Positions 3,162 to 35,818 of a DNA stretch of 38,899 bases are shown here, piece by piece (within the stretch, counting starts at the first letter, position 1; each line of letters opens with the position of its first letter). Under the pieces are notes generated by a model. It worked only from the letters and a program-made list of their open reading frames with translations, was not told the origin of the DNA and did not search any database. The stretch comes from Polyangium jinanense (GTDB lineage Bacteria; Myxococcota_A; Polyangia; Polyangiales; Polyangiaceae). The translations under genes were made by a program, and so were the position numbers. The stretch lies in assembly GCF_028435265.1 (NCBI RefSeq), contig NZ_JAGTJK010000012.1, positions 1 through 38,899 on the forward strand, read 5' to 3'.

Positions 3162-3872
3162 ATGCCGAAAGTCGCCAAGAAACGCGCTGCGGCCCAGGCC
3201 ATGGTGGACCGCACGCGCAAGTACACGCTCCAAGAAGCGTGTGCGCTCGTAAAGCAGGCCGCATCGGCGAAGTTCGACGAGACCGTCGATATCGCTGTGC
3301 GGTTGGGCGTGAACCCGCGTCACGCGGACCAGATGGTTCGCGGCGCCGTGGTCATGCCGGCCGGAACGGGCCAGTCGGTCCGCGTCCTCGTCTTCGCCAA
3401 GGGCGAAAAGGCGAAGGAAGCGGAAGCGGCGGGCGCCGATTTCGTCGGTGAGGCCGACCTGGTGAACAAGATCCAGGAAGGCTTCATGGACTTCGACCGC
3501 GTGATCGCTACGCCCGACATGATGGGTTTGGTCGGTAAGCTCGGTCGTATCCTCGGTCCGCGAGGCCTCATGCCGAACCCGAAGGTCGGCACCGTCACCG
3601 TCGATGTGAAGACGGCGGTGTCCGAAGCGAAGGCCGGCAAGGTGGAGTACCGCGTCGAGAAGGCGGGCATCGTGCACGCTCGGATCGGCAAGGCCTCCTT
3701 CAAGGAGGACGCGCTCGCCAAGAACGCGGAGGCCTTGATTCAGGCTCTCATTCGCGCGAAGCCGTCGACGGCGAAGGGGGTGTACCTCCGGAGCATCACG
3801 TTGTCTTCGACGATGGGGCCGGGCGTCCGGATTGACCCGGTGCACCTCAGCGACAAGGGTGAGGAGGGCTGA
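3162..3872 (+). CDS. rplA: 50S ribosomal protein L1
   Basis: [26 protein letters not shown]... 236 aa, L1 family. Confidence 0.95.
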
Positions 3873-5066: not shown

Positions 5067-5249
5067 TGGGGGGTTTGCTGCTGCGTCTGTCGCGTGATTC
5101 GAGCGCGTCTTCCAGGTCGCGGTAGCGCAGCCGAGTTTGTCCGTCGCCGGGACCTTTGATGGCTGTTTCGTAGCTTCGAGGCTGATGCTCGGTTCGTGGA
5201 GCGCGCGGGGAACGAGCCCTGCGCACCCGTAGGAGCCGGAGGAATATCG

Positions 5250-9377
<4,128 letters not shown>

Positions 9378-9383
9378 TGCCGA

Positions 9384-13715
<4,332 letters not shown>

Positions 13716-13766
13716 GCTGCAGGGTAGGGGGGTCGTCGTCGCCGACGGCCTCCTGACCCCAAAGCC

Positions 13767-13810
13767 GCACGCCCGCCCTGTCTTCAGGCGCGGGCGTGCG
13801 CTTTTTGTTC
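13767..13810 (+). terminator. Rho-independent terminator of the rpoBC operon
   Basis: GCACGCCCGCC-ctgtcttcag-GCGCGGGCGTGC perfect GC-rich stem immediately followed by GCTTTTTGTTC. Confidence 0.85.
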
Positions 13811-13913
13811 GGCCAGGCACGCGCCGTCCCCTGTCGATCCGCCGGAGGACTGCTGCTTCGGCGGGTCTTGGGATACCCCGTCGTTGCGGACATGTACTAT
13901 CTCTGCACTCGCG

Positions 13914-18718: not shown

Positions 18719-18769
18719 GGTTTGGCGGGGGCGGGCCCGGGATCGGAGCCTGCCCCCGCGCTTTCGGCG

Positions 18770-19789
<1,020 letters not shown>

Positions 19790-19831
19790 GTCCTCACGCC
19801 TCCGAAGCGAGAACGGCGATGCTACCGCGGT

Positions 19832-21865
19832 TCAGACCGTCGTGGACGCCGAACCCTCGCGCTTTTGCCCCACCGCGCGCAGGAACAGCTCCAGCACGAC
19901 GAGCCCGAGCAGCCCGAGCGCGACGTAGGGCGACGCGTCGATCGAGGGCACGACGCCGCCGAGCGCCTCGGCACGCGCCGCGTCGATCACGCGCCGCGGG
20001 CGCAGATCGATCTCGCGCTCGGGGACGGTCGCGACGCGGATCGCGCGCTCGCCGTCGAGACGCACCTCGTACCGACCCCGCAGCGGCGCCACGGCGCGGC
20101 GGCGTCCGTCCTGCTCCACGACCGGGATCGGCCGCCGCGCTTCGCCTGTGCGGAGCGGCAATCGCTCGATCGACACGTCCTTGAACCCGTCGAACGTGAA
20201 CGCGTCGCCGACGTCGATCTGCCGCGCCCCGCCCCGCGCCCGCGCCGTGCCCACGAAGCGGTCGAGCAGGGCGAGGAATGCCGGCCGCAGGACGAAGTCG
20301 CTCTCGTCCACGGTGAGCGGCAGCGAGAGCGCGAAGACGGCGCCGCGGCCGAGCGAGCGGCGCAGGAGCAGGGGCGCGCCGTCGTCCCAGCGCGCGAGCA
20401 TGTCCGCGTTCGTCGCGGCGGCCGGATCGAAGGACGCGCGTCCGTCGGGCGAGAGCTTGCCGAGGCCCTCCGCGCTCGGCCCGAAAAACACCGCGCTCGC
20501 GGGATCGGCGCCCTGGGACGGACTCGGCCCCCAGCGCACCACGCCTGGCACGAGCGGATCGAACCCCGCCCCGAGTGGCGCTGTCGCCGCGCGCGGCCCG
20601 AACGTCAAGAGCAGCACGCCCCCGCGCTCGACCCACGCCGAAAGCGAGCGCCGACCCTCCGGCGTGAAGCCCGGCACGTCATCGACGATGAGCCCGGCAA
20701 ACGCGGCGAGCTCATCCGCGTGGTCCGGCACCGCGGGCAGCGGCCGCACCTCCGCGTCGAGGTGCATCGCCGTGAGGGCCTGCTCGATCGGCGGCGGCCC
20801 GCCCGTGGCCACGTGCGTCGAGGCCACGTCCACCACGACCGCGATTGGCAGCGCCCCGCCGGCCGGCACGACCGGGGCCTCGTCGTCCTCCAGGATCGCG
20901 TCGCCCGGCGTCAGCCCGACCGTCAGGTCCTCCGGCGCTCCTTCCGGCACGTCGAGCGCGACCTCCTCGGCGCGGACGGACGGCCCGAGCGGCGCCGACG
21001 CGAGCACCTTCCCCTCGGCCCGCAGCTCCACCGCGCGGCCCGCCGAGGCCGAGATCACCGCCGCGCCCTCGCCGGCCGGCCGCGCCTCGGGGCTGCACAC
21101 GACCCGCGCCCGCACCTTGCCCGAGCGCAGATCCGCGCGTGTCACGGCGCAATCGCGGTCTGTGGCTTCGAGCTCCGGCAGCGGCACCCACAACGTCGTG
21201 TCCGAGCCGCCGCCGAGGGGCGTGGCGTTCGGCGCTCCATCGGCGAGGTCGCTCAGGAGCACCACCCGCCGATCGGCGTGCGGAACGCTGCGCAGAAGCT
21301 CCCGCGCCAGGGCCAGCGCGCCATCCAGATCCGTCGCGCGATCCGACGGCTCGATCCCATCGAGCGCGCCCGTCACGGCCGCCATGTTCGTCGTGGACGC
21401 GAGTGCCACGCGCGCGGGCGCGCCCCCGAGGACCACGGCCACCGCATCGCCGCTGCGCAGGCCCGTGGCGAGCTCGCGCGCCGAGGCGAGGGCCCGATCG
21501 AACTTCGTCCGTTTCCCCGGCGCGGCCGTTCCGCCCTCCAGCGGCGCGCGCATGCTCAGCGAATCGTCGATCACGATCGCGAGCGCCACCGAGGCTCCGT
21601 CTTTTCGCTCCAGGCCGAGCCGCGCGCACCGCACGAACGGCGTCGCGCCGAGCACCGCGAGCAAGAGCACGCTGAGCGCTCGCACCGCGAAGAGCGAGCG
21701 ATCCTCCAGCATGCTCCGCCGCCGGGCCAATGGCTTCGTCGGCGGAACGAGCTTCGCGGGCGGGAAGGGTTGCTCCTCGGCTTGCCTTCGCCGGAGCAGG
21801 TGCGCTGCGACCGGCGCGGCGACGAGCAGCGCCACGAGCAGCGCGGCGATCGTGGCGAAGCTCAT
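19832..21865 (-). CDS. BatA-like vWA-domain membrane protein (aerotolerance-operon type)
   Basis: N-terminus MSFATIAALLVALLVAAPVAAHLLRRRQAEEQPFPP...RSLFAVRALSVLLLAVLGATPF matches the BatA N-terminal double-TM domain. vWA MIDAS motif VIDDSLSM. Start overlaps the upstream DUF58 stop (ATGA). Confidence 0.85.
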   Translation of the reverse strand: MSFATIAALLVALLVAAPVAAHLLRRRQAEEQPFPPAKLVPPTKPLARRRSMLEDRSLFAVRALSVLLLAVLGATPFVRCARLGLERKDGASVALAIVIDDSLSMRAPLEGGTAAPGKRTKFDRALASARELATGLRSGDAVAVVLGGAPARVALASTTNMAAVTGALDGIEPSDRATDLDGALALARELLRSVPHADRRVVLLSDLADGAPNATPLGGGSDTTLWVPLPELEATDRDCAVTRADLRSGKVRARVVCSPEARPAGEGAAVISASAGRAVELRAEGKVLASAPLGPSVRAEEVALDVPEGAPEDLTVGLTPGDAILEDDEAPVVPAGGALPIAVVVDVASTHVATGGPPPIEQALTAMHLDAEVRPLPAVPDHADELAAFAGLIVDDVPGFTPEGRRSLSAWVERGGVLLLTFGPRAATAPLGAGFDPLVPGVVRWGPSPSQGADPASAVFFGPSAEGLGKLSPDGRASFDPAAATNADMLARWDDGAPLLLRRSLGRGAVFALSLPLTVDESDFVLRPAFLALLDRFVGTARARGGARQIDVGDAFTFDGFKDVSIERLPLRTGEARRPIPVVEQDGRRRAVAPLRGRYEVRLDGERAIRVATVPEREIDLRPRRVIDAARAEALGGVVPSIDASPYVALGLLGLVVLELFLRAVGQKREGSASTTV

Positions 21866-22797
21866 GCGCGCGCCTCGGCCACGGCGCGCACCACTTCGCG
21901 CACCACGTCGGCGGGAGGCTTGTCCGTGACAGACTCCACCCAGCGCCCGCCCCTTCCGGAAAGCTCCGTCGACCAGCGCTCGGCGATCCCGGCGAGCCGC
22001 TCGCGGTAGACCGCGCGCACCTCCTCGGCGTCGGTCTCCACGACCACGTCGCCCTCGCTCGCGCGGAGCCGCACGTGCCCGGAGAAGCCGAGATCCGCCT
22101 CGTTCGGGTCGAGCACCCGCAGCGCCACGAGCGAGCGCCCGCCGGCTGCGAGCGCCGAAAATGCCGACAGCGCCCGCTCCGGCAGGTCCACGAAATCGCT
22201 CACGAGCACGATCACCGCGCCTCGCCGCGCCCGCCGTGCCACCGGGGCGAGGGCCCGCTCCATCGCCGCCTCGTCCGTGCTCGCGTCACCCGCGGCCGCG
22301 GCCCCTTCGAGCGCCCCGGCCACCCGATCGAACGCCTCGCGCCCGCTCGACGCTGGCAGCGGCAGCGTCCCGCGCCCGCCGATCCACGCGAGGCCCACGG
22401 GATCCCCCGTCGACAGCGCCACGCGTGCCAGCGCCGCGGCCACGAGCGCCCCGTAGGCGAGCTTCGCGCCTGGGGCCCGGCTGCTGCGGTAGGCCATCGA
22501 CGCCGTCGCGTCCACACAGAGCCAGAGCGCGCGATCCGTCTCCGTCTCGAACTCGCGCACCATCATCCGGTCGTGCCGGAGCAGCGCGCGCCGGTCGAAG
22601 AACCGGAGATCGTCGCCGGGCACGTAGGGCCTGTGCCCGCCGAACTCCACGCCGGGCCCTTTGCGCACGCTCCGGTGCCCGCCGGCGTAGACGCCCTCGG
22701 CCAGCGTCCGGGCCCTGAGGCGCAGCGGCGCGAGGCTACCCCAGTCGATGGGGATCCCATCTCTTCCGGAGCGCGACGAAGGGCGAAGCTCGGCCAT
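21862..22797 (-). CDS. DUF58-family protein (vWA-like; normally partner of a MoxR AAA+ ATPase)
   Basis: GIPIDWGSLAPLRLRARTLAEGVYAGGHRSVRKGPGVEFGGHRPYVPGDDLRFFDRRALLRHDRMMVREFE is the DUF58 signature block. Start set at ATG 22797 (conserved block begins 12 aa later) rather than the ORF-track start 23067. Confidence 0.85.
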   Translation of the reverse strand: MAELRPSSRSGRDGIPIDWGSLAPLRLRARTLAEGVYAGGHRSVRKGPGVEFGGHRPYVPGDDLRFFDRRALLRHDRMMVREFETETDRALWLCVDATASMAYRSSRAPGAKLAYGALVAAALARVALSTGDPVGLAWIGGRGTLPLPASSGREAFDRVAGALEGAAAAGDASTDEAAMERALAPVARRARRGAVIVLVSDFVDLPERALSAFSALAAGGRSLVALRVLDPNEADLGFSGHVRLRASEGDVVVETDAEEVRAVYRERLAGIAERWSTELSGRGGRWVESVTDKPPADVVREVVRAVAEARA

Positions 22798-26560: not shown

Positions 26561-27718
26561 ATGGCGCGTACCCTCCCAACCTTGGCGATCAGGGTTCAGG
26601 GGAAAATCGGCGACAAATACGAGCTCTCCGCCGTCCTCGGAGAGGGGGCGATAGGCACGGTCTACGCCGCGAAGAACCTGCGAACCGGCCGGCGCGTGGC
26701 GATCAAGTCGCTGCGGGGGAGCGTCCTCGACCCGCGGGATCCCGAGCTTTTGCGCTTCGACCAGGAGGCGCGCATCGCGGGTTCGCTCGAATCGGAGCAC
26801 ATCGCCCAGGTGCTCGACATCGAGCGGGATCCCGCCACGGACGCCCCGTTCCTCGTGATGGAACTGCTCCGCGGGGAGGACCTGCAATCCCTCCTCGACA
26901 GGGTCGGCCCCTTGCCGGTCGACGTGGCTTTGCGGATCGCGGCGCAGGTTTGCGCGGGGCTCGCGGCGGCGCATGCGGCGGGCGTGGTGCATCGGGACAT
27001 CAAGCCCGGCAATCTCTTTCTCGCGCGGCGGGAAGGCGGCGCAATCGTGGTCAAGATCCTCGATTTCGGCCTCGCCAAGATCCGGCGCCTCCCGCCGGAT
27101 CTTTCCACGAGCGCCGCGCCTTCGGCCCTCTCGGCGCCGCAGCAGTCCATGACCGAGACGGGGCAGCTCCTCGGCTCGCCGCTTTACATGTCGCCGGAGC
27201 AGCTCGACGGCGCGAAAGGCATCGACGCACGCAGCGACCTGTTTTCGCTGGCGGTGACGCTGTTCGCGATGCTCACCGGAAAGCCGCCGCATGCGGACGT
27301 CAAATCGTTCCCCTTGCTGCTCAACCATATCGCGACGAAGCCGATGCCCACGGTGCGCGAGGTCGTGCCGGGGGTCGGCCCCGACGTGGAGGCGCTCCTC
27401 GAACGGGCGTCACGGCTTTCGCGTGAAGAACGGTTCTCCAGCGCGGCGGCGATGCGCGAAGCGATGAAGCCCCTCTTGCCGGGAGGCATGGCGCTGCGGG
27501 AGGACATGCTCGTCGGCCGCAGGGACGCGTCCAGCGAGGTGGGCATGACCCACATGGAGAGCGATTCGTACGCCATGATCGAGCGCGCGGTGGCCGAGGA
27601 ACGGGCCCCGACGGAGGCGACGGTCTCGTCGCGCCCCCGGCGATGGCCTGTGTGGCTCGGGATCGCCGTCGTCCTGGTGGCGGCGGTCGTGATGGCCCTC
27701 GGGCTCCTTGGGCGCTAA
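26561..27718 (+). CDS. Ser/Thr protein kinase with C-terminal transmembrane anchor
   Basis: Hanks kinase motifs: GEGAIGTVYAA, AIK, HRDIKPGNLFL, DFGLAK, SPEQ. C-terminal WPVWLGIAVVLVAAVVMALGLLGR TM helix. Confidence 0.9.
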   Translation: MARTLPTLAIRVQGKIGDKYELSAVLGEGAIGTVYAAKNLRTGRRVAIKSLRGSVLDPRDPELLRFDQEARIAGSLESEHIAQVLDIERDPATDAPFLVMELLRGEDLQSLLDRVGPLPVDVALRIAAQVCAGLAAAHAAGVVHRDIKPGNLFLARREGGAIVVKILDFGLAKIRRLPPDLSTSAAPSALSAPQQSMTETGQLLGSPLYMSPEQLDGAKGIDARSDLFSLAVTLFAMLTGKPPHADVKSFPLLLNHIATKPMPTVREVVPGVGPDVEALLERASRLSREERFSSAAAMREAMKPLLPGGMALREDMLVGRRDASSEVGMTHMESDSYAMIERAVAEERAPTEATVSSRPRRWPVWLGIAVVLVAAVVMALGLLGR

Positions 27719-27726
27719 GGAGGGGC

Positions 27727-29445
27727 ATGAACCAGCGGGAAATCCTTGCTTTTATCGACCGGCTCCGGAAGGCGAGGACCTTCGAGGACGCCGCGCACAC
27801 CTTGCTGCGCGCGATGCTCGACGCGGCGCTCGCGGCGCTCGCGGAGAGCGGCTTCGCCGGCCGCGGCAAGATCCTCCGCGGCATGGCGCACTGGCGGCCC
27901 GGCGACGGCTACCGGCGACTGGTCCTTCTCGACGATACGCAGCGCGGCGGCGAGCCGACCATCAACTATTTGCCCTCCGTGAGCGCGTGGCGCTGGGTCG
28001 TCACGCGCGAATGCCCCATTGCGATCGACGTCCCGCTCGGTCGCGTATGGACGTGGCAAAACGAATCCGCGAACCTGTTCCAGGAGGGCGGATTTTCCGG
28101 TCAGGACAGCGTGCTTCGGCTGACGAGCCGCGACACGAGCCACCTCTACGCGATCCCGCTGCGCACCCTGCACGGCGCGATCGAGGGAATGGCCACGGTC
28201 GAGGCGGGGTGCCCGAGGGCCGTCGGCGACGATTTCATCTTCCCGGCCATTCACGAATCACTGGAGCTCCTCGCCGACCTCGCGGCGCCTTACCTCGCGA
28301 CCCTTCCGCCCCGGCCCGCGGCGACTGGCGCGACCGACGATCTCTTGCCCGTCATGGGCCAGAGCATGGCGGGCTTGATCGACATGCTCCGCGTCTTCGC
28401 GCAGCAGGAGGAGACCCTGCTCATCGGCGGTCCCACGGGTGCGGGCAAATCGCGCCTCGCGCGCTGGTGCCACGCGCGATCGGTCCGGCGTGAGGCGCCC
28501 TTCGAGGTCCTCGACCTCATCGCCGTGCCCGAAGAGCTGCAAATGGCGGAGCTCTTCGGCTGGAAAAAGGGCGCGTTCACGGGCGCGGTGCGCGACACGC
28601 CCGGGTGCATCACGCGGGCCTTCAAGGGGACGTTGTTCATCGACGAGATCGACAAACTCTCGCTGAAGGCGCAGGCGGGATTGCTCCAGCTCCTCGAATC
28701 GCGCACGTATCGCCCGATCGGGGACGGCGCGCGCGAGCAGCAGGCGAACGTGCGTTTCATCGTGGGGAGCAACGTCGACCTGTACGACCAGGTGAAGGCC
28801 GGACGGTTCCGGGAGGATCTTTATTATCGGATCAACGTGCTCCCGGTGCAGATCCCCCCGCTCGACGAGCGCCGGGACGAAATTGCGGAATGGGCGCGCT
28901 TCATGGCCTCGAGGCGCCATCGCGAATCGGTGCCGGGCGGGGAAGCGCGGATCGCGGCGGGCGTGGAGACGCTTCTCGGTGAGCATGCCTGGCCGGGCAA
29001 TTTGCGTCAGCTCGACAACGTCGTTCGCCGGGCCTATGCGCTCGCGCTCATGACGCACGGTGAGGCAGGGTCGGAGATCTTGCTGGAGGAAAAGCATTTC
29101 GCGCGCGCCCTGAGCTACGAGCGGGGGAGCGGGCGAAGGTCGACGCTCGACGACCTGCGCGTCGCGGCGGGCGCGATCGTGGAAGAGGCCGAGCGGCAGC
29201 AGGGAAAGGGCCTCGTGTTCGACCTGGATCTCTGCGATGCATTCCGCGGCCTCGTGCTCGGCACGGCGGTGGAGCGGCTCGGTAGCCGGGACGCGGCGTT
29301 CCGGCTTTTCGGGAAGGGCGCGCAGGTGCAGGCGCGCAATCACCACAAGATGCTGCGGCGCGAGCTGGAGAAGGTCGAGGCGCTTTGCAAGGCGCTCGGG
29401 GAGGAGAGCGGGCCCTTTCGGGAGCTGAGGGACGACGAGGCCTGA
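27727..29445 (+). CDS. Sigma-54-dependent transcriptional activator (bacterial enhancer-binding protein) with GAF-like N-terminal sensor domain
   Basis: Walker A GGPTGAGKS, GAFTGA sigma-54 contact loop (KGAFTGA), Walker B LFIDEID, arginine finger region REDLYYRINV. Perfect SD AAGGAGGGG immediately before ATG 27727. Starts 9 nt after the kinase stop. Confidence 0.9.
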   Translation: MNQREILAFIDRLRKARTFEDAAHTLLRAMLDAALAALAESGFAGRGKILRGMAHWRPGDGYRRLVLLDDTQRGGEPTINYLPSVSAWRWVVTRECPIAIDVPLGRVWTWQNESANLFQEGGFSGQDSVLRLTSRDTSHLYAIPLRTLHGAIEGMATVEAGCPRAVGDDFIFPAIHESLELLADLAAPYLATLPPRPAATGATDDLLPVMGQSMAGLIDMLRVFAQQEETLLIGGPTGAGKSRLARWCHARSVRREAPFEVLDLIAVPEELQMAELFGWKKGAFTGAVRDTPGCITRAFKGTLFIDEIDKLSLKAQAGLLQLLESRTYRPIGDGAREQQANVRFIVGSNVDLYDQVKAGRFREDLYYRINVLPVQIPPLDERRDEIAEWARFMASRRHRESVPGGEARIAAGVETLLGEHAWPGNLRQLDNVVRRAYALALMTHGEAGSEILLEEKHFARALSYERGSGRRSTLDDLRVAAGAIVEEAERQQGKGLVFDLDLCDAFRGLVLGTAVERLGSRDAAFRLFGKGAQVQARNHHKMLRRELEKVEALCKALGEESGPFRELRDDEA

Positions 29446-29450
29446 GCGCC

Positions 29451-29545
29451 CCGGGCTCCGCGTCCACGGATGACGCACGCGCGTACCTACGTTACGCGCG
29501 CCGAGCCTCGCTCGGGCCCCGCGTCCGAGCGAGGCTCGGGTGCAC
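29451..29545 (+). repeat. Double-dyad intergenic element, copy 1 (candidate enhancer/UAS)
   Basis: Dyad A CGCGCGTA-cctacgt-TACGCGCG (29478-29500). Dyad B CCGAGCCTCGCTCGG-gccccgcgt-CCGAGCGAGGCTCGG (29501-29539, perfect 15-bp arms). About 85% identical to 31447-31545. Confidence 0.6.
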
Positions 29546-29560
29546 GCAGCTCTCGCGTGT

Positions 29561-29577
29561 CGGCATGCGGGTTGCTT
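29561..29577 (+). promoter_or_regulatory. Candidate sigma-54 (-24/-12) promoter for astacin-propeller gene
   Basis: cGGCATGcgggTTGCTt versus consensus TGGCACG-N4-TTGCW. GG at 29562-63 and GC at 29574-75 (12-nt spacing). About 64 nt upstream of ATG 29641. Confidence 0.55.
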
Positions 29578-29640
29578 TGCGGCTATCCGCACCGCGAGCA
29601 ACGCGGCCCAACACAGTATCCCGCTGGAGCTTCGACACCC

Positions 29641-31431
29641 ATGAAACGTTATCATTCCATGGCGATTGCCATCGCGTCGGTCCTTGCCGTTTCCTACTCG
29701 TCGACCGGCTGCTCTGGCCCGGCCGAACCCTCCGCCGAGGAAAACGTTCAGACGGACGTGGCCCCGCTTTATGTAGCCTCGTCGAAGCTGTGGAGCGGAG
29801 AGTCCGTCCAGGTCTGCTGGGAAAACCCCAGCGCGGCGCCTCAAGCCGAGAGAGACTGGGTCAGACAAGCCGTCCTCGCGTCGTGGGACGCCCACACGCG
29901 GGTGGATTTCAATGGCTGGGGTACATGCACCAGCTCGTCGAATGGAATTCGCATCCGAATCTCCGATGAAGGCCCACACACAGATGGCCTCGGCACCGAT
30001 CTCGACGGCGAAACGGATGGTATGGTATTGAACTTTACCTTCCAAAACTGGTCCCCGGACTGTCAGAACTCGCGCCGGTTCTGCATCGAAGCAATCGCGG
30101 TGCACGAGTTCGGGCACGCGCTCGGATTCGCTCACGAGCAGAATCGGCCCGACACCCCGTCGTGGTGCGATGAGGAGCAGGGGAGCGACGGTGACCTCAC
30201 GCTAAACTTGTGGGATCTGGATTCGGTGATGAATTACTGCAATCCGGAATGGAACGGCAACGGCACGCTCAGCGAGAGCGACATCCAGGGCGCGATCCAG
30301 ATGTACGGCACTCCGCGATGGATAACGGAGTACGGCTATGTTCAGGGATGGCGTGTGGACAAGCACCCGCGTATGATGGCGGACGTCGACGAGGATGGAA
30401 AGCAGGATGTCGTCGCATTCGGCGATGCGGGGACGCTCGTGTCCAGGTCCACCGGGACCGGCTTCATGGCGCCGGAACTATGGGTGGACCAATATAATTA
30501 CAATCACGGCTGGCGCACCGAATATCACGAGCGGATGATGGCGGATGTCAACAACGATGGGAAGCCGGACGTGGTCGGCTTTGGGGACGCAGGCGTGCTG
30601 GTCTCGCTCTCGACGGGAAGCTCGTTTACGGCGCCGTCACTCTGGGTCGGCGATTATGGCTGGAATCAGGGCTACCGCGTGGACAAGCACCCGCGCATGA
30701 TGGCCGACGTCAACAACGATGGGAAGCCGGACGTCGTCGCTTTCGGGGACAATGGCGTGGTGGTCTCGCTCTCGACGGGAAGTTCGTTCACGGCGCCGTC
30801 GCTCTGGCTCGCCAATTACGGCTACAATCATGGCTATCGCATCGACCAGCACCCACGCATGATGGCCGACGTCAACAACGATGGGAAACAAGACGTCGTC
30901 GTCTTTGCCAACAACGGCGTGTACGTGGCGCTCTCGACGGGAAGCTCCTTCTCGACGCCATCGCTTTGGGTCGGGAATTATGGTTACAACCACGGCTACC
31001 GCGTGGACATGCATCCGCGGATGACGGCCGATGTCAACGGCGACGGGAAGCAGGACATCGTTGCCTTCGGTGACAACGGCGTGGTCGTGTCTACCTCGAC
31101 GGGAAGCTCCTTCACGACGCCCCAGCTCTGGGTCAACAGATTCGGGTATAATCAAGTCGGATGGCGCGTGGAACAGCACCCGCGCATGATGGCGGATGTA
31201 GACAATGACGGGAAAGATGACGTGGTCGGCTTTGGGGGCAACGGCGTTTATATCTCGCGCTCTACCGGGAGCTCGTTCGAGCTGCCGAGCCACCTGGTAG
31301 AAGGCTTCGGTTATGATTTCGGATGGCGCGTGGACATGCACCCGCGCATGATGGCGGATATCAATGGTGATGGAACGCAGGACGTGGTCGGCTTTGCAAA
31401 TGAAGGCGTCTTCGTCAGACAGACCTACTGA
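29641..31431 (+). CDS. Secreted lipoprotein: astacin-like zinc metalloprotease domain fused to 7 FG-GAP-like Ca-binding propeller repeats
   Basis: Lipobox signal MKRYHSMAIAIASVLAVSYSSTGC. HEFGHALGFAHEQNRPD matches the astacin signature HExxHxxGFxHEQxRxD. Met-turn SVMNY. Then 7 tandem 54-aa repeats, each with a DxNxDGxxD Ca-binding loop (ADVNNDGKPDVV), FGD.G and STGSSF. Confidence 0.85.
   Translation: MKRYHSMAIAIASVLAVSYSSTGCSGPAEPSAEENVQTDVAPLYVASSKLWSGESVQVCWENPSAAPQAERDWVRQAVLASWDAHTRVDFNGWGTCTSSSNGIRIRISDEGPHTDGLGTDLDGETDGMVLNFTFQNWSPDCQNSRRFCIEAIAVHEFGHALGFAHEQNRPDTPSWCDEEQGSDGDLTLNLWDLDSVMNYCNPEWNGNGTLSESDIQGAIQMYGTPRWITEYGYVQGWRVDKHPRMMADVDEDGKQDVVAFGDAGTLVSRSTGTGFMAPELWVDQYNYNHGWRTEYHERMMADVNNDGKPDVVGFGDAGVLVSLSTGSSFTAPSLWVGDYGWNQGYRVDKHPRMMADVNNDGKPDVVAFGDNGVVVSLSTGSSFTAPSLWLANYGYNHGYRIDQHPRMMADVNNDGKQDVVVFANNGVYVALSTGSSFSTPSLWVGNYGYNHGYRVDMHPRMTADVNGDGKQDIVAFGDNGVVVSTSTGSSFTTPQLWVNRFGYNQVGWRVEQHPRMMADVDNDGKDDVVGFGGNGVYISRSTGSSFELPSHLVEGFGYDFGWRVDMHPRMMADINGDGTQDVVGFANEGVFVRQTY
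30319..31428 (+). repeat. Tandem in-frame coding repeats, period 162 nt (54 aa), about 6.8 copies
   Basis: Repeat starts (Trp codons) at 30319, 30481, 30643, 30805, 30967, 31129, 31291. Units W..YGYNHGYRVD.HPRMMADVNNDGK.DVV.FGDNGV.VSLSTGSSFT.PSL with extended near-identical nucleotide stretches. Confidence 0.85.
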
Positions 31432-31446
31432 GGTCCGCTCCCATCG

Positions 31447-31545
31447 CCCGGAGCTCCGCGTCCACGGATGACGCACGCGCGTACCTACGTTACGCGCGCC
31501 GATCCCCGCTCGGGCCCCGCGTCCGGGCGAGGATCGTGTAGACGC
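31447..31545 (+). repeat. Double-dyad intergenic element, copy 2 (candidate enhancer/UAS)
   Basis: ccggagctccgcgtccacggatgacgcacgCGCGCGTAcctacgtTACGCGCGccgatccccgctcgggccccgcgtccgggcgaggatcg. Dyad A identical to copy 1. Dyad B retains 12/15 symmetry with one compensatory G:C to T:A change. Confidence 0.6.
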
Positions 31546-31591
31546 AGCTTTCACGTGTGCCTTTCGGGCCTGAAGCACCTCCGGACGACCT

Positions 31592-31608
31592 CTGGCACGA
31601 CGGGTGCA
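31592..31608 (+). promoter_or_regulatory. Candidate sigma-54 (-24/-12) promoter for downstream lipoprotein gene
   Basis: cTGGCACGacggGTGCAa. TGGCACG is a perfect -24 element. GC at 31606-07 is 12 nt after the GG. About 27 nt before SD AGGAGG and the TTG start at 31646. Confidence 0.6.
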
Positions 31609-31645
31609 ATGTCCGTGATCGTCACCTTCGACAGGAGGCTCTCTC

Positions 31646-32572
31646 TTGAACCCTGGAACCACGCTGCTTCGTTGTGCTTCGCCGTTCGTGTTCATCGCCA
31701 TGAGCCTCTATGGCCTGGGTTGCATGGCAGACCCCGAGGATCCGGGTTGGGATCCCGAGGGTGAGGTGCTCGGGGAGGCTCATCTCGGGTCAGGTGGCGA
31801 TCCGGGGACCACCAATCACTTGAGGTATCGGGTCACCCATAATCATGGCGTGCAGCGGACCGTTCGTGTGATCGGTAATGCCGCGCTGGCCCCTTCCGGC
31901 TTCCTGCCCAGCATGCCCGACATGCCATCGCCCAGCGCGGCGGGTGAGTGGGCAGGCGCCAGGGTCGAGTTTCTGGAGAAGCTCATCGGTTGCGCCTTGG
32001 CCGAGGGGACCACCGTGGGGGACACGGGACATATTGTCGGGTACATGACGAGTGGGGGGTTCTCCGTGCCCGTGTTCCAGCAGTACCATGGTGAGATCGG
32101 TCTTGCGCCGGACTGGAGCACGCGCGCGCTCACGACGGATGAAAAGAGGTGGGTCACGGCCTGCGTCGTGGCGCGCACCAACCGCTACGGCGCGACGATC
32201 AACATCCTGCTCGGAGGCGCTCACCCGGAGATCACCTATCGAGCCAGCGAGGCCTACCCCTACACGGTGCCGGAGTCGACGGTGTGGGGCAATATGTTCG
32301 ATTCTACAATGCCGCTGGGTAGCAACACCGATAGCACTCCAGCGTTCAATGCGTACATCTGTAGCGACGTGACGTTCTGCAGCTCTGCCGAGGGGGCGAC
32401 CCTCCGGGCATGTGACGCGACGTATACGCCCTGCGGCTTCAGCTACATGGGACTCTGCGACACCTTCGATGCCTTCTGCAGCGATCCGTTGCATTCGACG
32501 TTCGAGGGCTGCTCGAACCGCTCCTACGCGATTCACAGCTACTTGAAGGCGAGCGACGCGACTTGCCCTTGA
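31646..32572 (+). CDS. Secreted lipoprotein of unknown function with Cys-rich C-terminus (308 aa)
   Basis: TTG start 31646 with AGGAGG 6 nt upstream. Signal MNPGTTLLRCASPFVFIAMSLYGLGC (lipobox LGC). Mixed amino-acid composition, 12 Cys, 9 of them in the C-terminal third. Lower-GC codon usage. Confidence 0.6.
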   Translation: MNPGTTLLRCASPFVFIAMSLYGLGCMADPEDPGWDPEGEVLGEAHLGSGGDPGTTNHLRYRVTHNHGVQRTVRVIGNAALAPSGFLPSMPDMPSPSAAGEWAGARVEFLEKLIGCALAEGTTVGDTGHIVGYMTSGGFSVPVFQQYHGEIGLAPDWSTRALTTDEKRWVTACVVARTNRYGATINILLGGAHPEITYRASEAYPYTVPESTVWGNMFDSTMPLGSNTDSTPAFNAYICSDVTFCSSAEGATLRACDATYTPCGFSYMGLCDTFDAFCSDPLHSTFEGCSNRSYAIHSYLKASDATCP

Positions 32573-32614
32573 GCGCCCGCTCCGTCCGACGTTCCTGCGT
32601 TGCCGGACACTCGC

Positions 32615-35600
32615 TCACTCCATTCCCTTGGCCTCCTGAATGTTCGCCTGATGCGCCGCCGCGAGCCGCGGGTTTTCCCGGATCGCTGCCACGAACGCCT
32701 CGCCCGCCGCGCGCGCGGCTTTCTTTCGATCCTCTCCGCGTGAGACCCTCGCCCGTACCAGGAGGAGCTCCCCCTTCGCCACGAACGCTTGCGCGCTGTG
32801 CGGGTGAATGGCGAGCGCCTTCTCTGCGAATTCGAGCCCCACGTCGACATCAGCGTTCGCGCTTTTCTCGTGCCCATCCAACCACGGGGCCTTTTTCGCG
32901 TGAATCTCGGCGAGCATCTGATAGGGCCGAGGGTCGTTGCGCTCCTTCGCGACGAGAGGTCGCAGGACGGCCGCCGCGGCATCGAATCCTTGCTCGCGCG
33001 CCTCGCCGCTCACCGCGCGCGCGCGGGCGGCGAAGAGGTGGAGCCTGGCCAGGATATGGTGAGAATCGATGTCCCACGTGTCCTCCTCGGCGACCTTCTC
33101 CACGCGGTCCCGCACCGAAAGGAGCTCGGGGACGGGCAGGAGGCGGTTGGAGAGTGTGTGCTCGGCTTCGAGCAGCCGGAGCTCGGCGACCTCCATCAAC
33201 AAGAAGCCCGTCTCCGTGCCTGGCGTCGCGAATGCATGGATCTTCTCCAGGCCTGCGGCGATCGAGGCGCGAGGATCCTTGCCGACCGAGAGCTCGTACG
33301 CAGCCCGAACCCGCAACGATTTGGCCGCGTAGTAGGCGGGTAGAAAGCCTCCGAGGCTCCGCTGTTCGACCAGGGCTACGGCGTTCGAGAGTGCATCCAC
33401 GCTGCTCTGCGCTTCGAGCCCGTGCTCGGTCTCGTACACGAGCCTGTAGATGGCAGCGCGGATCTTGCCGAACATGGGCAAGGTGAAGCTCGGGTCCACT
33501 TCGATGGCTTGATCGAACCGCTGCGATGCGCTCCCGAGGAGCTGGCGAGGATCCTCGCCGTGGAGACGGTCGAACTCCGCTTTTATCAGATACGTTTGTC
33601 CGAGTTCGTTCAGCGCCCAGGTAAACCGAGGCTCGACGTCGAGGACGCGGTGGAACGCCGCTATCGCATCCTCGGCGGTCACGCGCTCGCCGCGCGCGGC
33701 CTGCCGCGCTGCCCGGACGTTCAATGTGGCAGCCAGCGCGTAAAGCGCCATCGCGTCCCGAGGGCGGACGCGTACGGCCTCTTCCACGGCCTGGAGGACG
33801 GCTTGCTGAGCCGCGTCCGCGTCATTCGCCTGGGCATTTTCCGTGAAAAATCGGTAATAAAGCGCGAGCGCACGTTCGACCCGCGCGGCGCCATCCAGGC
33901 TGCTTGATTGTACCGCCCGGGCGCAGGTGGCCTCCGCGTTACCGAACTCGATCTGCGCAGGTTTTCCCAGCGCTCCTGCCGCGAGCCCCATCTTCTCCCA
34001 AAGCTCACACTCCGCCCGATGCACCTCCGGATCACTCTCAGCCATCTCCGCCGCGACCTTGTACGCCTCGGCCGCCGGGCCAAACGACAGCATCATCTTG
34101 TCCCAATCGAACGCCGCGTCGTGCCGATACTTGCTCCCCTCCGCGAACAATGCATCCGCCTCGAGCTTCTTCGCCTCATACATCCATGGCGCCTGCTCGA
34201 AGGCCTCCCGCGCCTTCGCCCGCGCCTCCTCGTTTTTCCCCTCGTACAACGCGATGAGCCCCTCCACGTACGCCGGCGCCTCGATCTCCGCCCCCGACGC
34301 CGCCCTCAAATGACCGAGCGCCGGAGCTCGCAGCGCCGCCGCGAGCTCCGCCTCCCGCTTCTTGCGCTCCTCCGCGTTCGTGATCCGCTTCGTCTTCGCG
34401 AGCGCCCGCCGATAAAGCTCCCCGAGCGTCCGCCCCAGCGCGTATTCGAGCTCCGGCGATCGATACCCCGCGCCGACCGCCTTCTCCAGATGCTCCCGCG
34501 CCTTTTCCGGATCCCCCAGCGCGAGATATCCCCGCCCGAGCGCGTAATGCCCCGGGCCCTCGCCCACGCGCCCCGCCTCCTTCATCCGCTCCTCGATCGC
34601 CGAGAGCTTCCGCCGCACCACGTCCCGCTCGCGCTCCACGTCGTGCAGCGGCAGCTCGTAGGCCGCGCGCAAGAAGAGCTCCATCTCCTTCACCCGCTCG
34701 CCGAGCTCCTGCGCGATCCTCGCCTCGGCTGCCGCCTGCTGCCGTGCCTTCCACCACACGCCGGCGAGCGCCAGCGCCGCGACGAGGAGCACGCCGGAGA
34801 CCGCCGTCGCGAGCTTGTGTTTCCGCGCCTTCTTCCACAGCACGTACCCCACCGACGCCCGCCGCGCCAGAATCGGCTCTCCGTCCAAAAACCGCTGCAA
34901 ATCCTCGGCGAGCGCCCGCGCCGATTCGTATCGCCGCCCCGGATCTCGCTCCAGGCATTTCATCACGATCGTCTCGAGATCCGCCGGCACCCCTTTCTTC
35001 ACCTTCCCCAGCGCAGGCGCCTCCTCGAAGGCGACCATCATCAAAAGCTTCCACGTGTGTGGCGCGACGAACGGCGGCCGCTCCGCGACGACGTCGTAGA
35101 GCGTCGCGCCGAGCGAATATACGTCCGAGCGTCGATCCAGCGCTCGCACGTCGCCCTTTGCTTGTTCCGACGACATGAACGCCGGGGTCCCCAGCACCGC
35201 CCCCGTCACCGTCTCTCCTTTGTCCGCGACCTCCCGCGCCAGACCGAAATCCATCACGTAGGGCTTGATGTCCCCGTCCGCGCTCCTTTCGACCATGATG
35301 TTGCCGGGCTTGATGTCCCGGTGAATGAGCCCGAGCCGGTGCGCTTCGTGGACCGCGGCCGAGACCTCCCGCATCAGCTTCACGCGTTGTTCGAGCGATA
35401 GCTGTCCGGCCATTTTCGAGAGCGGTTCACCCTCGATGTATTGCATTGCGATGAAAGGCTCGCCGTCGGCCTCTCCGGCCTCGTAGATCCGGCAAACGTT
35501 CTCGTGCTGGACCTTCGCCTGCGACCGCGCCTCCTGGAGGAAACGCCGCCCGAGCTCCGGATCGCTGCCCTTGAGCAGCTTGAGCGCCACCGTGCGTCCG

Positions 35601-35818
35601 AGCCGCGGATCCCGGCCGCGATAGACGGTCCCCATCCCGCCTTCGCCGAGGAAATGAATGTCCTCGTACCGTTCCGCGAGGGACGGGGGCACGCTGCGAC
35701 GCTCCGACCGGAGCTCCAAAGGAGGGCCGAGTTCCGTCTGCGCGAGCGCGGGATCGACCAGCACCGTGCTGCTCTCCACGTCGACGTCCACCTCGGGCGA
35801 CGCACGAACGACCCTCAT
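32615..35818 (-). CDS. Ser/Thr protein kinase with single TM and large TPR-like extracytoplasmic/sensor region (1067 aa)
   Basis: Kinase motifs GEGGMGTVYRG, ALK, HRDIKPGNIMV, DFGLAR, SSEQ. TM LATAVSGVLLVAALALAGVWW. About 700 aa helical repeat region (..YALGRGYLALGDPEKAREHLEKAV..). Confidence 0.9.
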   Translation of the reverse strand: MRVVRASPEVDVDVESSTVLVDPALAQTELGPPLELRSERRSVPPSLAERYEDIHFLGEGGMGTVYRGRDPRLGRTVALKLLKGSDPELGRRFLQEARSQAKVQHENVCRIYEAGEADGEPFIAMQYIEGEPLSKMAGQLSLEQRVKLMREVSAAVHEAHRLGLIHRDIKPGNIMVERSADGDIKPYVMDFGLAREVADKGETVTGAVLGTPAFMSSEQAKGDVRALDRRSDVYSLGATLYDVVAERPPFVAPHTWKLLMMVAFEEAPALGKVKKGVPADLETIVMKCLERDPGRRYESARALAEDLQRFLDGEPILARRASVGYVLWKKARKHKLATAVSGVLLVAALALAGVWWKARQQAAAEARIAQELGERVKEMELFLRAAYELPLHDVERERDVVRRKLSAIEERMKEAGRVGEGPGHYALGRGYLALGDPEKAREHLEKAVGAGYRSPELEYALGRTLGELYRRALAKTKRITNAEERKKREAELAAALRAPALGHLRAASGAEIEAPAYVEGLIALYEGKNEEARAKAREAFEQAPWMYEAKKLEADALFAEGSKYRHDAAFDWDKMMLSFGPAAEAYKVAAEMAESDPEVHRAECELWEKMGLAAGALGKPAQIEFGNAEATCARAVQSSSLDGAARVERALALYYRFFTENAQANDADAAQQAVLQAVEEAVRVRPRDAMALYALAATLNVRAARQAARGERVTAEDAIAAFHRVLDVEPRFTWALNELGQTYLIKAEFDRLHGEDPRQLLGSASQRFDQAIEVDPSFTLPMFGKIRAAIYRLVYETEHGLEAQSSVDALSNAVALVEQRSLGGFLPAYYAAKSLRVRAAYELSVGKDPRASIAAGLEKIHAFATPGTETGFLLMEVAELRLLEAEHTLSNRLLPVPELLSVRDRVEKVAEEDTWDIDSHHILARLHLFAARARAVSGEAREQGFDAAAAVLRPLVAKERNDPRPYQMLAEIHAKKAPWLDGHEKSANADVDVGLEFAEKALAIHPHSAQAFVAKGELLLVRARVSRGEDRKKAARAAGEAFVAAIRENPRLAAAHQANIQEAKGME

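Follow-up and report, generated by a model that had tools for sequence, protein, structure and literature searches.

The 38,899-nt stretch of Polyangium jinanense contig NZ_JAGTJK010000012.1 analyzed here, referred to below as the window (G+C content, 67.5%), carries a gene for a sigma-54 enhancer-binding protein (EBP) that is followed on the same strand by genes for a secreted metalloprotease and a lipoprotein. A 114-nt direct repeat precedes each of these two genes, and it is this repeat, together with the short inverted repeats (dyads) that it contains and their predicted relationship to the EBP, that is considered in what follows. The features of the locus are listed in order along the window; "UAS" denotes a predicted upstream activating sequence.

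26561-27718, plus strand: Ser/Thr protein kinase gene (Pfam Pkinase, E 4e-40), directly 5' of the EBP gene
27727-29445, plus strand: EBP gene, 572 aa (Sigma54_activat, E 5e-48); stop codon TGA at 29443-29445
29447-29560, plus strand: repeat copy 1, 114 nt (predicted UAS plus spacer), found by repeat search; blastn against copy 2, 90% identity, E 6e-41
29460-29476, no strand: dyad site A of copy 1, the promoter-distal predicted EBP site, GCGTCCACGGATGACGC; exact GCGT-N9-ACGC match, GCGTC-N7-GACGC
29481-29497, no strand: dyad site B of copy 1, GCGTACCTACGTTACGC, GCGTA-N7-TACGC; inner part of the palindrome CGCGCGTA-N7-TACGCGCG (29478-29500)
29501-29539, no strand: long palindrome of copy 1, 15-bp perfect arms and 9-nt spacer, CCGAGCCTCGCTCGG-N9-CCGAGCGAGGCTCGG
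29561-29576, plus strand: predicted -24/-12 promoter of the protease gene, CGGCATGCGGGTTGCT (CGGCATGCGGGTTGC at 29561); 2 mismatches to TGGCAC-N5-TTGC
29641-31431, plus strand: gene for a secreted FG-GAP/VCBS-repeat zinc metalloprotease lipoprotein, 596 aa (Pfam FG-GAP_3, Matrixin, Astacin); predicted target gene 1
31445-31558, plus strand: repeat copy 2, 114 nt, found by repeat search and blastn
31458-31474, no strand: dyad site A of copy 2, GCGTCCACGGATGACGC; exact GCGT-N9-ACGC match
31479-31495, no strand: dyad site B of copy 2, GCGTACCTACGTTACGC; exact GCGT-N9-ACGC match
31499-31537, no strand: long palindrome of copy 2, imperfect, with 12 Watson-Crick pairs and 1 G-T pair of 15 (inverted-repeat and fold analysis)
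31593-31608, plus strand: predicted -24/-12 promoter of the lipoprotein gene, TGGCACGACGGGTGCA (TGGCACGACGGGTGC at 31593); 1 mismatch, the best match in the window
31646-32572, plus strand: gene for a 308-aa lipoprotein, called as an open reading frame (ORF); predicted target gene 2 and predicted conserved EBP target in Polyangiaceae
32615-35818, minus strand: large kinase-TPR gene, downstream of the lipoprotein gene

The first-pass annotation, which was made from these letters alone, had reported tandem palindromes after the EBP stop codon and a recurrence of the same element after the protease stop codon. Both observations are borne out by the sequence, and the palindromes belong to the longer repeat, copy 1 of which starts 2 nt past the EBP stop and copy 2 of which starts 14 nt past the protease stop (31429-31431). 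The dyads A and B within each copy are 17 bp long, have the form GCGTNN-N5-NNACGC, and are placed 21 bp apart from centre to centre, a distance of two helical turns. The window has just four exact matches to GCGT-N9-ACGC, namely sites A and B of copy 1 and sites A and B of copy 2. Their geometry, in which 6-bp half-sites flank a 5-bp centre within 17 bp, is that of Fis/NtrC-type helix-turn-helix (HTH) dimers. Where the annotation had looked for binding-site dyads, the inner part of its first palindrome does correspond to site B, whereas site A (29460-29476) had been overlooked. A stretched third dyad (GCGTCC at 29521 with ACGC at 29544, N19) was set aside, as GCGT and ACGC are common tetramers in DNA of 68% GC.

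The repeat was aligned as eight copies from four species (P. jinanense, P. sorediatum, Polyangium sp. y55x31, and Polyangium sp. 6x1), in all of which both copies occupy orthologous positions. Gene order is the same on the P. sorediatum contig, which was reached via a protein ortholog and thus without use of the element. Site A carries no more than one arm change in any of the eight copies, and the four copies found in P. jinanense and P. sorediatum have the same site B sequence. Between these two species, whose comparison was not ascertained via the core sequence described below, the conserved first ~45 nt (GCGTCCACGGATGACGC-acgc-GCGTACCTACGTTACGC-gcgccga) shows a single difference in 90 nt. 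Paralogous copies differ at 8 to 17 positions per 101 columns and orthologous copies at a similar 6 to 16, so that either the duplication narrowly preceded the divergence of the species or constraint acts on the copies. The ancestral repeat was ~140 nt long: copy 1 of the sister species has ~24 further nt in common with copy 2, and copy 1 of P. jinanense has a deletion of ~24 nt (CTTTCACGTGCCTTTCGGGCCTG) that the other copies keep. In P. sorediatum copy 1, a species-specific insertion or replacement of ~46 nt (L001, 9863-9908) lies between the palindrome and the promoter match. The distance from the UAS to the promoter is clearly free to vary.

Such indel plasticity of the spacer between species, in a compact, hairpin-rich, intergenic sequence with unrelated flanking genes, would be in keeping with a small dispersed repeat that came to lie by chance in two neighbouring intergenic regions, and a REP-like nature (repetitive extragenic palindromic), expected to show as dozens of scattered copies, had been entertained in the first-pass annotation. 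We scanned 185,579 species genomes, one genome per species, for exact matches to a 19-nt core within site B (CGCGTACCTACGTTACGCG). It was present only in Polyangium sp. y55x31 and Polyangium sp. 6x1, exactly twice per genome and at this locus only. No third copy of the repeat was found in the 38.9-kb window, blastn with a word size of 7 included, and inspection of the repeat ends by eye gave nothing obvious in the way of terminal inverted repeats or target-site duplications. REP elements, bacterial interspersed mosaic elements (BIMEs), and miniature inverted-repeat transposable elements (MITEs) are likewise short, palindromic, and intergenic, and the genes that flank them are unrelated; the present repeat differs from them in having two copies per genome at one locus, with orthologous placement in four species and a -24/-12 match downstream of each copy. 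At the sensitivity of exact 19-mer matching, we therefore regard a REP-, MITE-, or BIME-like origin as very improbable.

The matches to the sigma-54 consensus lie downstream of the repeat copies, the distance from the centre of site B to the GG of the -24 element being 73 bp for copy 1 and 107 bp for copy 2; a UAS typically lies ~70 to 200 bp upstream of such a promoter. The copy 1 promoter match is invariant in all four species of the clade, and the copy 2 match is retained in P. sorediatum, sp. 6x1, sp. y55x31, and also P. fumosum. In the sigma-70 promoter/terminator scan of positions 27000 to 33000, a terminator-like match at 29552-29571 overlapped the copy 1 -24/-12 match; it is probably spurious and was discarded.

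An AlphaFold2 model of the EBP (predicted local distance difference test score, 82.8) comprises an alpha/beta GAF-like N-terminal domain, an AAA+ core, and a helical C-terminal domain. A Foldseek search with the full-length model matched only AAA+ domains (FlrC, NtrC1, FleQ, PspF), after which the C-terminal domain was modelled separately; this helical domain is predicted to be Fis-like and DNA-binding. A Pfam HTH match was not found for the predicted DNA-binding domain. The Ser/Thr kinase encoded at 26561-27718 is likely the signalling partner of the EBP. The pairing of the two genes is retained in the Polyangium loci examined (L001 and L005 to L009), and the EBP loci of Myxococcus xanthus and Corallococcus have no adjacent Ser/Thr kinase gene. 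Neither this EBP family nor the GCGTCC-N5-GGACGC motif derived below turned up in our literature searches.

The loci of EBP orthologs were retrieved for comparison; the full-length family is ~575 aa and is found across Myxococcota. We examined 12 myxobacterial genomes, which range from Polyangium to Myxococcus, Corallococcus, and Archangium, and in 11 of them tandem dyads adjoin the ortholog. Orthologs beyond the four-species clade are without the 114-nt element, and all but one have paired dyads of the A/B form, as follows (one locus was from a metagenome-assembled genome [MAG]).

P. fumosum (L005), dyads at 10928 and 10949 (region 10852-11043): one pair between two divergent predicted -24/-12 promoters, TGGCACGCGTGCTGCA toward an M4 peptidase gene and TGGCATGGGGGGTGCA toward the lipoprotein ortholog
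P. spumosum (L006): a single pair located 128 bp before the predicted promoter of the lipoprotein homolog
P. aurulentum (L007): dyads in two pairs, which precede an RCC1-protein gene and a lipoprotein homolog
Polyangium sp. 15x6 (L009), dyads at 10033 and 10065, 32 bp apart: upstream of TGGCACGCGTCCTGC and the lipoprotein homolog
Polyangiaceae MAG (L008), exact pair at 8837 and 8859: in a convergent intergenic region, ~1 kb from the predicted lipoprotein promoter
Archangium violaceum (L012): exact pairs, three in number; one starts 6 nt past the EBP stop codon, with TGGCACCGCCCTTGCT and a phosphoesterase gene 61 bp away
M. xanthus (L010), exact pair at 5713 and 5734 (region 5713-5830): upstream of a -24/-12 match before the EBP gene itself
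Corallococcus (L093), pair at 5700 and 5721 (region 5700-5806): arranged as in M. xanthus
Sorangium (L011): no dyads; homolog 56% identical

The two dyads of a pair are 21 to 22 bp apart in 11 of the 12 pairs, the remaining one being the 32-bp pair of Polyangium sp. 15x6. For most pairs the proximal site lies 61 to 149 bp from the GG of the -24 element, irrespective of whether the downstream gene encodes a lipoprotein, an M4 peptidase, an RCC1 protein, a phosphoesterase, or the EBP itself. Symmetrization of 24 distinct sites from the 12 genomes gave the consensus GCGTCC-N5-GGACGC. When a profile of the whole element was searched against P. fumosum, P. spumosum, and P. aurulentum with nhmmer, only weak matches were obtained (E 0.08 to 8), and these fell at the dyad region. 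Homologs of the lipoprotein, ~300 aa in length, adjoin the EBP gene in the loci of P. fumosum, P. spumosum, P. aurulentum, the MAG, and sp. 15x6 (blastp E 1e-14 to 1e-103); among the loci compared, the FG-GAP protease gene occupies the slot after the EBP gene in the four-species clade only. In the Myxococcaceae, the position of the dyads and a -24/-12 match before the EBP gene suggests autoregulation.

Two of these loci hold further features. In sp. 15x6, a second lipoprotein paralog directly follows the EBP gene and has a sigma-70-like promoter (TTGACA-N17-TAGGAT) and no dyads at 7820-7880; the paralog at 10200 is the one with dyads and a predicted sigma-54 promoter. In Archangium, an exact pair and a -24/-12 match (TGGCACGGCTCTCGCA) at 3493-3629 are located inside a called 1,131-aa kinase ORF upstream of a YcaO/TfuA cluster, which may reflect an internal promoter or a merged gene call.

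The EBP-family loci, which span 178.5 kb, hold 12 exact tandem pairs, and 200 dinucleotide-preserving shuffles gave 0.0. The 12 include nonindependent pairs from the four-species clade, and ~8 are independent. A single tandem pair was found in 525 kb around 80 nonorthologous EBP genes; these control loci were generic EBPs among the metagenome-scan matches listed (34 to 45% identity, over the central domain only), with no orthologs among those listed. The control pair, from a microbial-mat metagenome (L052, 5973-6009; GCGTCGGACCGTGACGC and GCGTCACAAACTGACGC, 20 bp apart), lies near the 3' end of an EBP gene and might mark a remote member of the family. The EBP gene is the sole gene common to all dyad-bearing loci.

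The long palindrome shows another pattern. Its 15-bp perfect arms, which the first-pass annotation had described as typical of regulator binding sites, appear to be the least constrained part of the repeat. The description of two perfect palindromes holds for copy 1, where the long palindrome is unique in that no other inverted repeat listed for the window combines a length of 15 nt with 100% complementarity, but not for copy 2, and among the eight copies the arms are perfect in P. jinanense copy 1 only. Between P. jinanense and P. sorediatum the palindrome region has ~10 differences over 78 positions (~13%), a divergence similar to that of fourfold degenerate sites in the same species pair (identity, 0.80 to 0.93). 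Most palindrome changes in the other seven copies disrupt pairs, and the palindrome is not present at EBP-linked promoters beyond the four-species clade. From these comparisons it appears to be unconstrained spacer DNA between the UAS and the promoter, and the functional core of the repeat is most likely its first ~40 bp, containing sites A and B.

The palindrome also bears on an explanation at the RNA level, in which the hairpins, especially the 15- to 17-bp GC stem (hairpin 3, formed by the long palindrome), would serve as a terminator without a U-tract or as a 3'-end stabilizer of the EBP and protease mRNAs and would insulate the sigma-54 promoters. Such a role could also hold for hairpin 3 alone, alongside a UAS role of the dyads. 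The position of the repeat 2 to 14 nt past the stop codons of co-directional genes is what this explanation would predict, and the predicted folds are strong: 131 nt of copy 1 fold with -77 kcal/mol (z -3.6), and hairpin 3 folds with -39 kcal/mol (z -6.3) in copy 1 and -28.6 kcal/mol (z -3.3) in copy 2. None of the eight copies has lost the hairpin entirely (84% of cells are paired), and it is confined to the clade with co-directional upstream genes. However, its stability is at background in three of the eight copies (z -0.4 to -1.0), the lowest being that of copy 2 of sp. 6x1 (-16 kcal/mol, z -0.4), and 5 of the 17 hairpin-3 pairs depart from pairing solely by unpaired cells. A covariation test on the three hairpins was negative (two-sided changes at 1 pair versus 1.1 in shuffles; score, 0.040 versus 0.041), with the low statistical power that eight close sequences afford. 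A T-tract is absent after both copies, as the first-pass annotation had noted in arguing that the element is not a canonical intrinsic terminator, and the terminator scan was silent at the hairpins. The same genome has a canonical intrinsic terminator with a stem and TTTTT after rpoC (13761-13811; AAAGCCGCACGCCCGC-N13-GCGGGCGTGCGC-TTTTTGTT), so the organism does make use of T-tract terminators. At the gathering threshold, Rfam matched only a tRNA elsewhere in the window, and a search by E value returned only sub-threshold miRNA-hairpin noise.

The dyads themselves are conserved in half-site sequence and not merely in pairing, and they recur where no gene ends, as in the divergent region of P. 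fumosum and upstream of the Myxococcus, Corallococcus, and Archangium EBP genes; the co-directional loci of Archangium and sp. 15x6 are without such a hairpin. The element thus shares with intrinsic terminators a GC-rich stem-loop right after stop codons and differs from them in lacking a U-tract and pairing covariation, in a stem that decays in sister species, and in a conserved part that is a sequence-specific dyad. We consider it unlikely that the repeat acts as an RNA element. A combined reading would make the 114- to 140-nt unit a cassette with two jobs: the dyads would recruit the activator, and the palindrome would be a U-tract-independent transcription block or a DNA structure that aids looping, shielding the sigma-54 promoter from read-through out of the co-directional gene before it. 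If this were true, copying the whole unit would add a gene to the regulon in one step. Separately from the cassette, GCGTCC-N5-GGACGC would be the code of a Myxococcota-wide GAF-type EBP family that controls secreted hydrolases and is encoded beside a Ser/Thr kinase gene in most loci. We hold this reading to be improbable.

Several points weigh against assigning the dyads to the EBP. The locus of the Sorangium homolog (56% identity) was searched and dyads were not found there. In the MAG, the dyads (8837-8875) sit convergently, ~1 kb from the nearest -24/-12 match (TGGCACGATACCTGCG, at ~9855), so that an enhancer would have to act from downstream of the lipoprotein gene or on an unrecognized transcript, and one of the Archangium pairs falls within the kinase ORF. 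The promoters are consensus matches only, that of copy 1 with two mismatches, and -24/-12 matches with up to two mismatches number 24 in the window versus 29.6 expected, which is not above chance; the promoter calls therefore rest on position and cross-species conservation. The genome-wide scan was restricted to exact 19-mers, which diverged copies and further regulon sites in P. jinanense would escape, and sp. y55x31 and sp. 6x1 were ascertained via this 19-mer, whose conservation in their site B is by construction. Finally, dyad symmetry by itself does not name the protein. Together with the lack of a Pfam HTH match in the EBP and the odd placement, for a UAS, of the MAG and kinase-ORF pairs, this leaves room for the dyads to be operators of a different transcription factor, such as a repressor or a second activator encoded elsewhere. 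Such a factor would have to be reconciled with the EBP gene being the only shared gene (kinase genes adjoin it mostly, but not in Myxococcus and Corallococcus), with the location of most pairs at the usual UAS distance upstream of -24/-12 matches, and with the near absence of dyads from nonorthologous EBP loci. We give it little credence.

On this evidence we think it probable that the dyads are the cognate enhancer of the adjacent EBP and that this enhancer was duplicated in the P. jinanense clade, the protease gene thereby entering the regulon. The first-pass annotation had preferred the idea that the adjacent EBP uses an enhancer placed before sigma-54 promoters, and this gains support from comparative evidence, through the dyads at EBP ortholog loci. 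Following the standard EBP paradigm, EBP dimers would bind both dyads from one face of the helix, using the C-terminal Fis-like helical domain. Release of the GAF-like N-terminal domain, which the adjacent Ser/Thr kinase may control, would then permit a higher EBP oligomer to form; the obvious signal inputs would be that kinase and the GAF-like domain. The intervening DNA would loop, and ATP hydrolysis would open the complex of sigma-54 holoenzyme at the predicted -24/-12 promoter 73 or 107 bp downstream. The rest of the 114-nt repeat, palindrome included, would be spacer DNA copied together with the UAS. As to history, the upstream region of the lipoprotein gene appears to have been duplicated to a position before the FG-GAP protease gene in the ancestor that the four species of the clade have in common. 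Because the lipoprotein gene adjoins the EBP gene throughout the Polyangiaceae and the protease gene does so only in the clade, copy 2 is probably the ancestral enhancer region and copy 1 the duplicate that recruited the protease gene.

NtrC-type enhancers, such as the UAS of enteric glnAp2, consist of paired 17-bp dyads with 6-bp half-sites and a 5-bp centre, ~70 to 150 bp upstream of a -24/-12 promoter. The predicted sites described here resemble them in the paired 17-bp dyads, the 6-bp half-sites, the spacing by integral helical turns, and the position upstream of a -24/-12 match, and the predicted activator resembles NtrC in its AAA+ sigma-54 interaction domain and its predicted C-terminal Fis-like helical domain. 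The half-site differs (GCGTCC/GGACGC here, TGCACC/GGTGCA for NtrC), and the EBP has no receiver domain, having instead a GAF-like N terminus and, in most loci, an adjacent Ser/Thr kinase gene. The nearest characterized myxobacterial analogue is PexR (MXAN_1565) of M. xanthus, a GAF-EBP whose binding sites are tandem CACCG-n6-CGGTG repeats located before sigma-54 promoters (PMC12754779). The two systems have in common the tandem interrupted palindromes upstream of sigma-54 promoters, predicted in our case, and the conservation of regulator and sites together across Myxococcota (PMC12754779). PexR belongs to another EBP family with another motif, present as three to five CACCG-n6-CGGTG repeats, and its targets are ahpC and katB, with H2O2 as the signal, whereas the predicted targets here are a secreted metalloprotease and a lipoprotein (PMC12754779 for PexR).

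Some further observations concern the genes of the window. The protease is 100% identical to P. jinanense protein P0001 and 86% identical to the P. sorediatum protein. An in-frame ATG at 29470, within dyad site A, opens a 653-aa ORF (29470-31431) that spans the predicted enhancer and promoter and could misdirect gene callers; the true start of the protease is the ATG at 29641, as indicated by the lipoprotein signal peptide and agreement with the P. sorediatum gene call. The protease gene contains five tandem 162-nt (54-aa) repeats at 30301-31413, 61 to 79% identical, which are its FG-GAP/VCBS repeats. The longest ORF for the EBP gene begins earlier than the listed start, at 27643. The 308-aa lipoprotein has no Pfam or NCBIfam match. 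Elsewhere in the window, rpoB (5196-9377) and rpoC (9384-13715) lie upstream of the terminator described above, and a run of GAC/GAG (Asp/Glu) codons occupies 19502-19642 inside a long ORF (18722-22009) without a Pfam match.

Myxobacteria encode dozens of EBPs, and few of these have known sites. A duplicated sigma-54 enhancer is ordinary in kind and not a new kind of element; its value lies in a candidate motif, tandem GCGTCC-N5-GGACGC dyads spaced by 21 to 22 bp, for an uncharacterized myxobacterial EBP family that is conserved from Polyangium to Myxococcus. The motif would permit genome-wide prediction of the regulon, which is directly testable, and the predicted targets in Polyangium include secreted metalloproteases and the conserved lipoprotein. 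The comparison also suggests two routes by which such a regulon may grow: P. jinanense would have duplicated the enhancer, and P. fumosum would use one enhancer for two divergent sigma-54 promoters.

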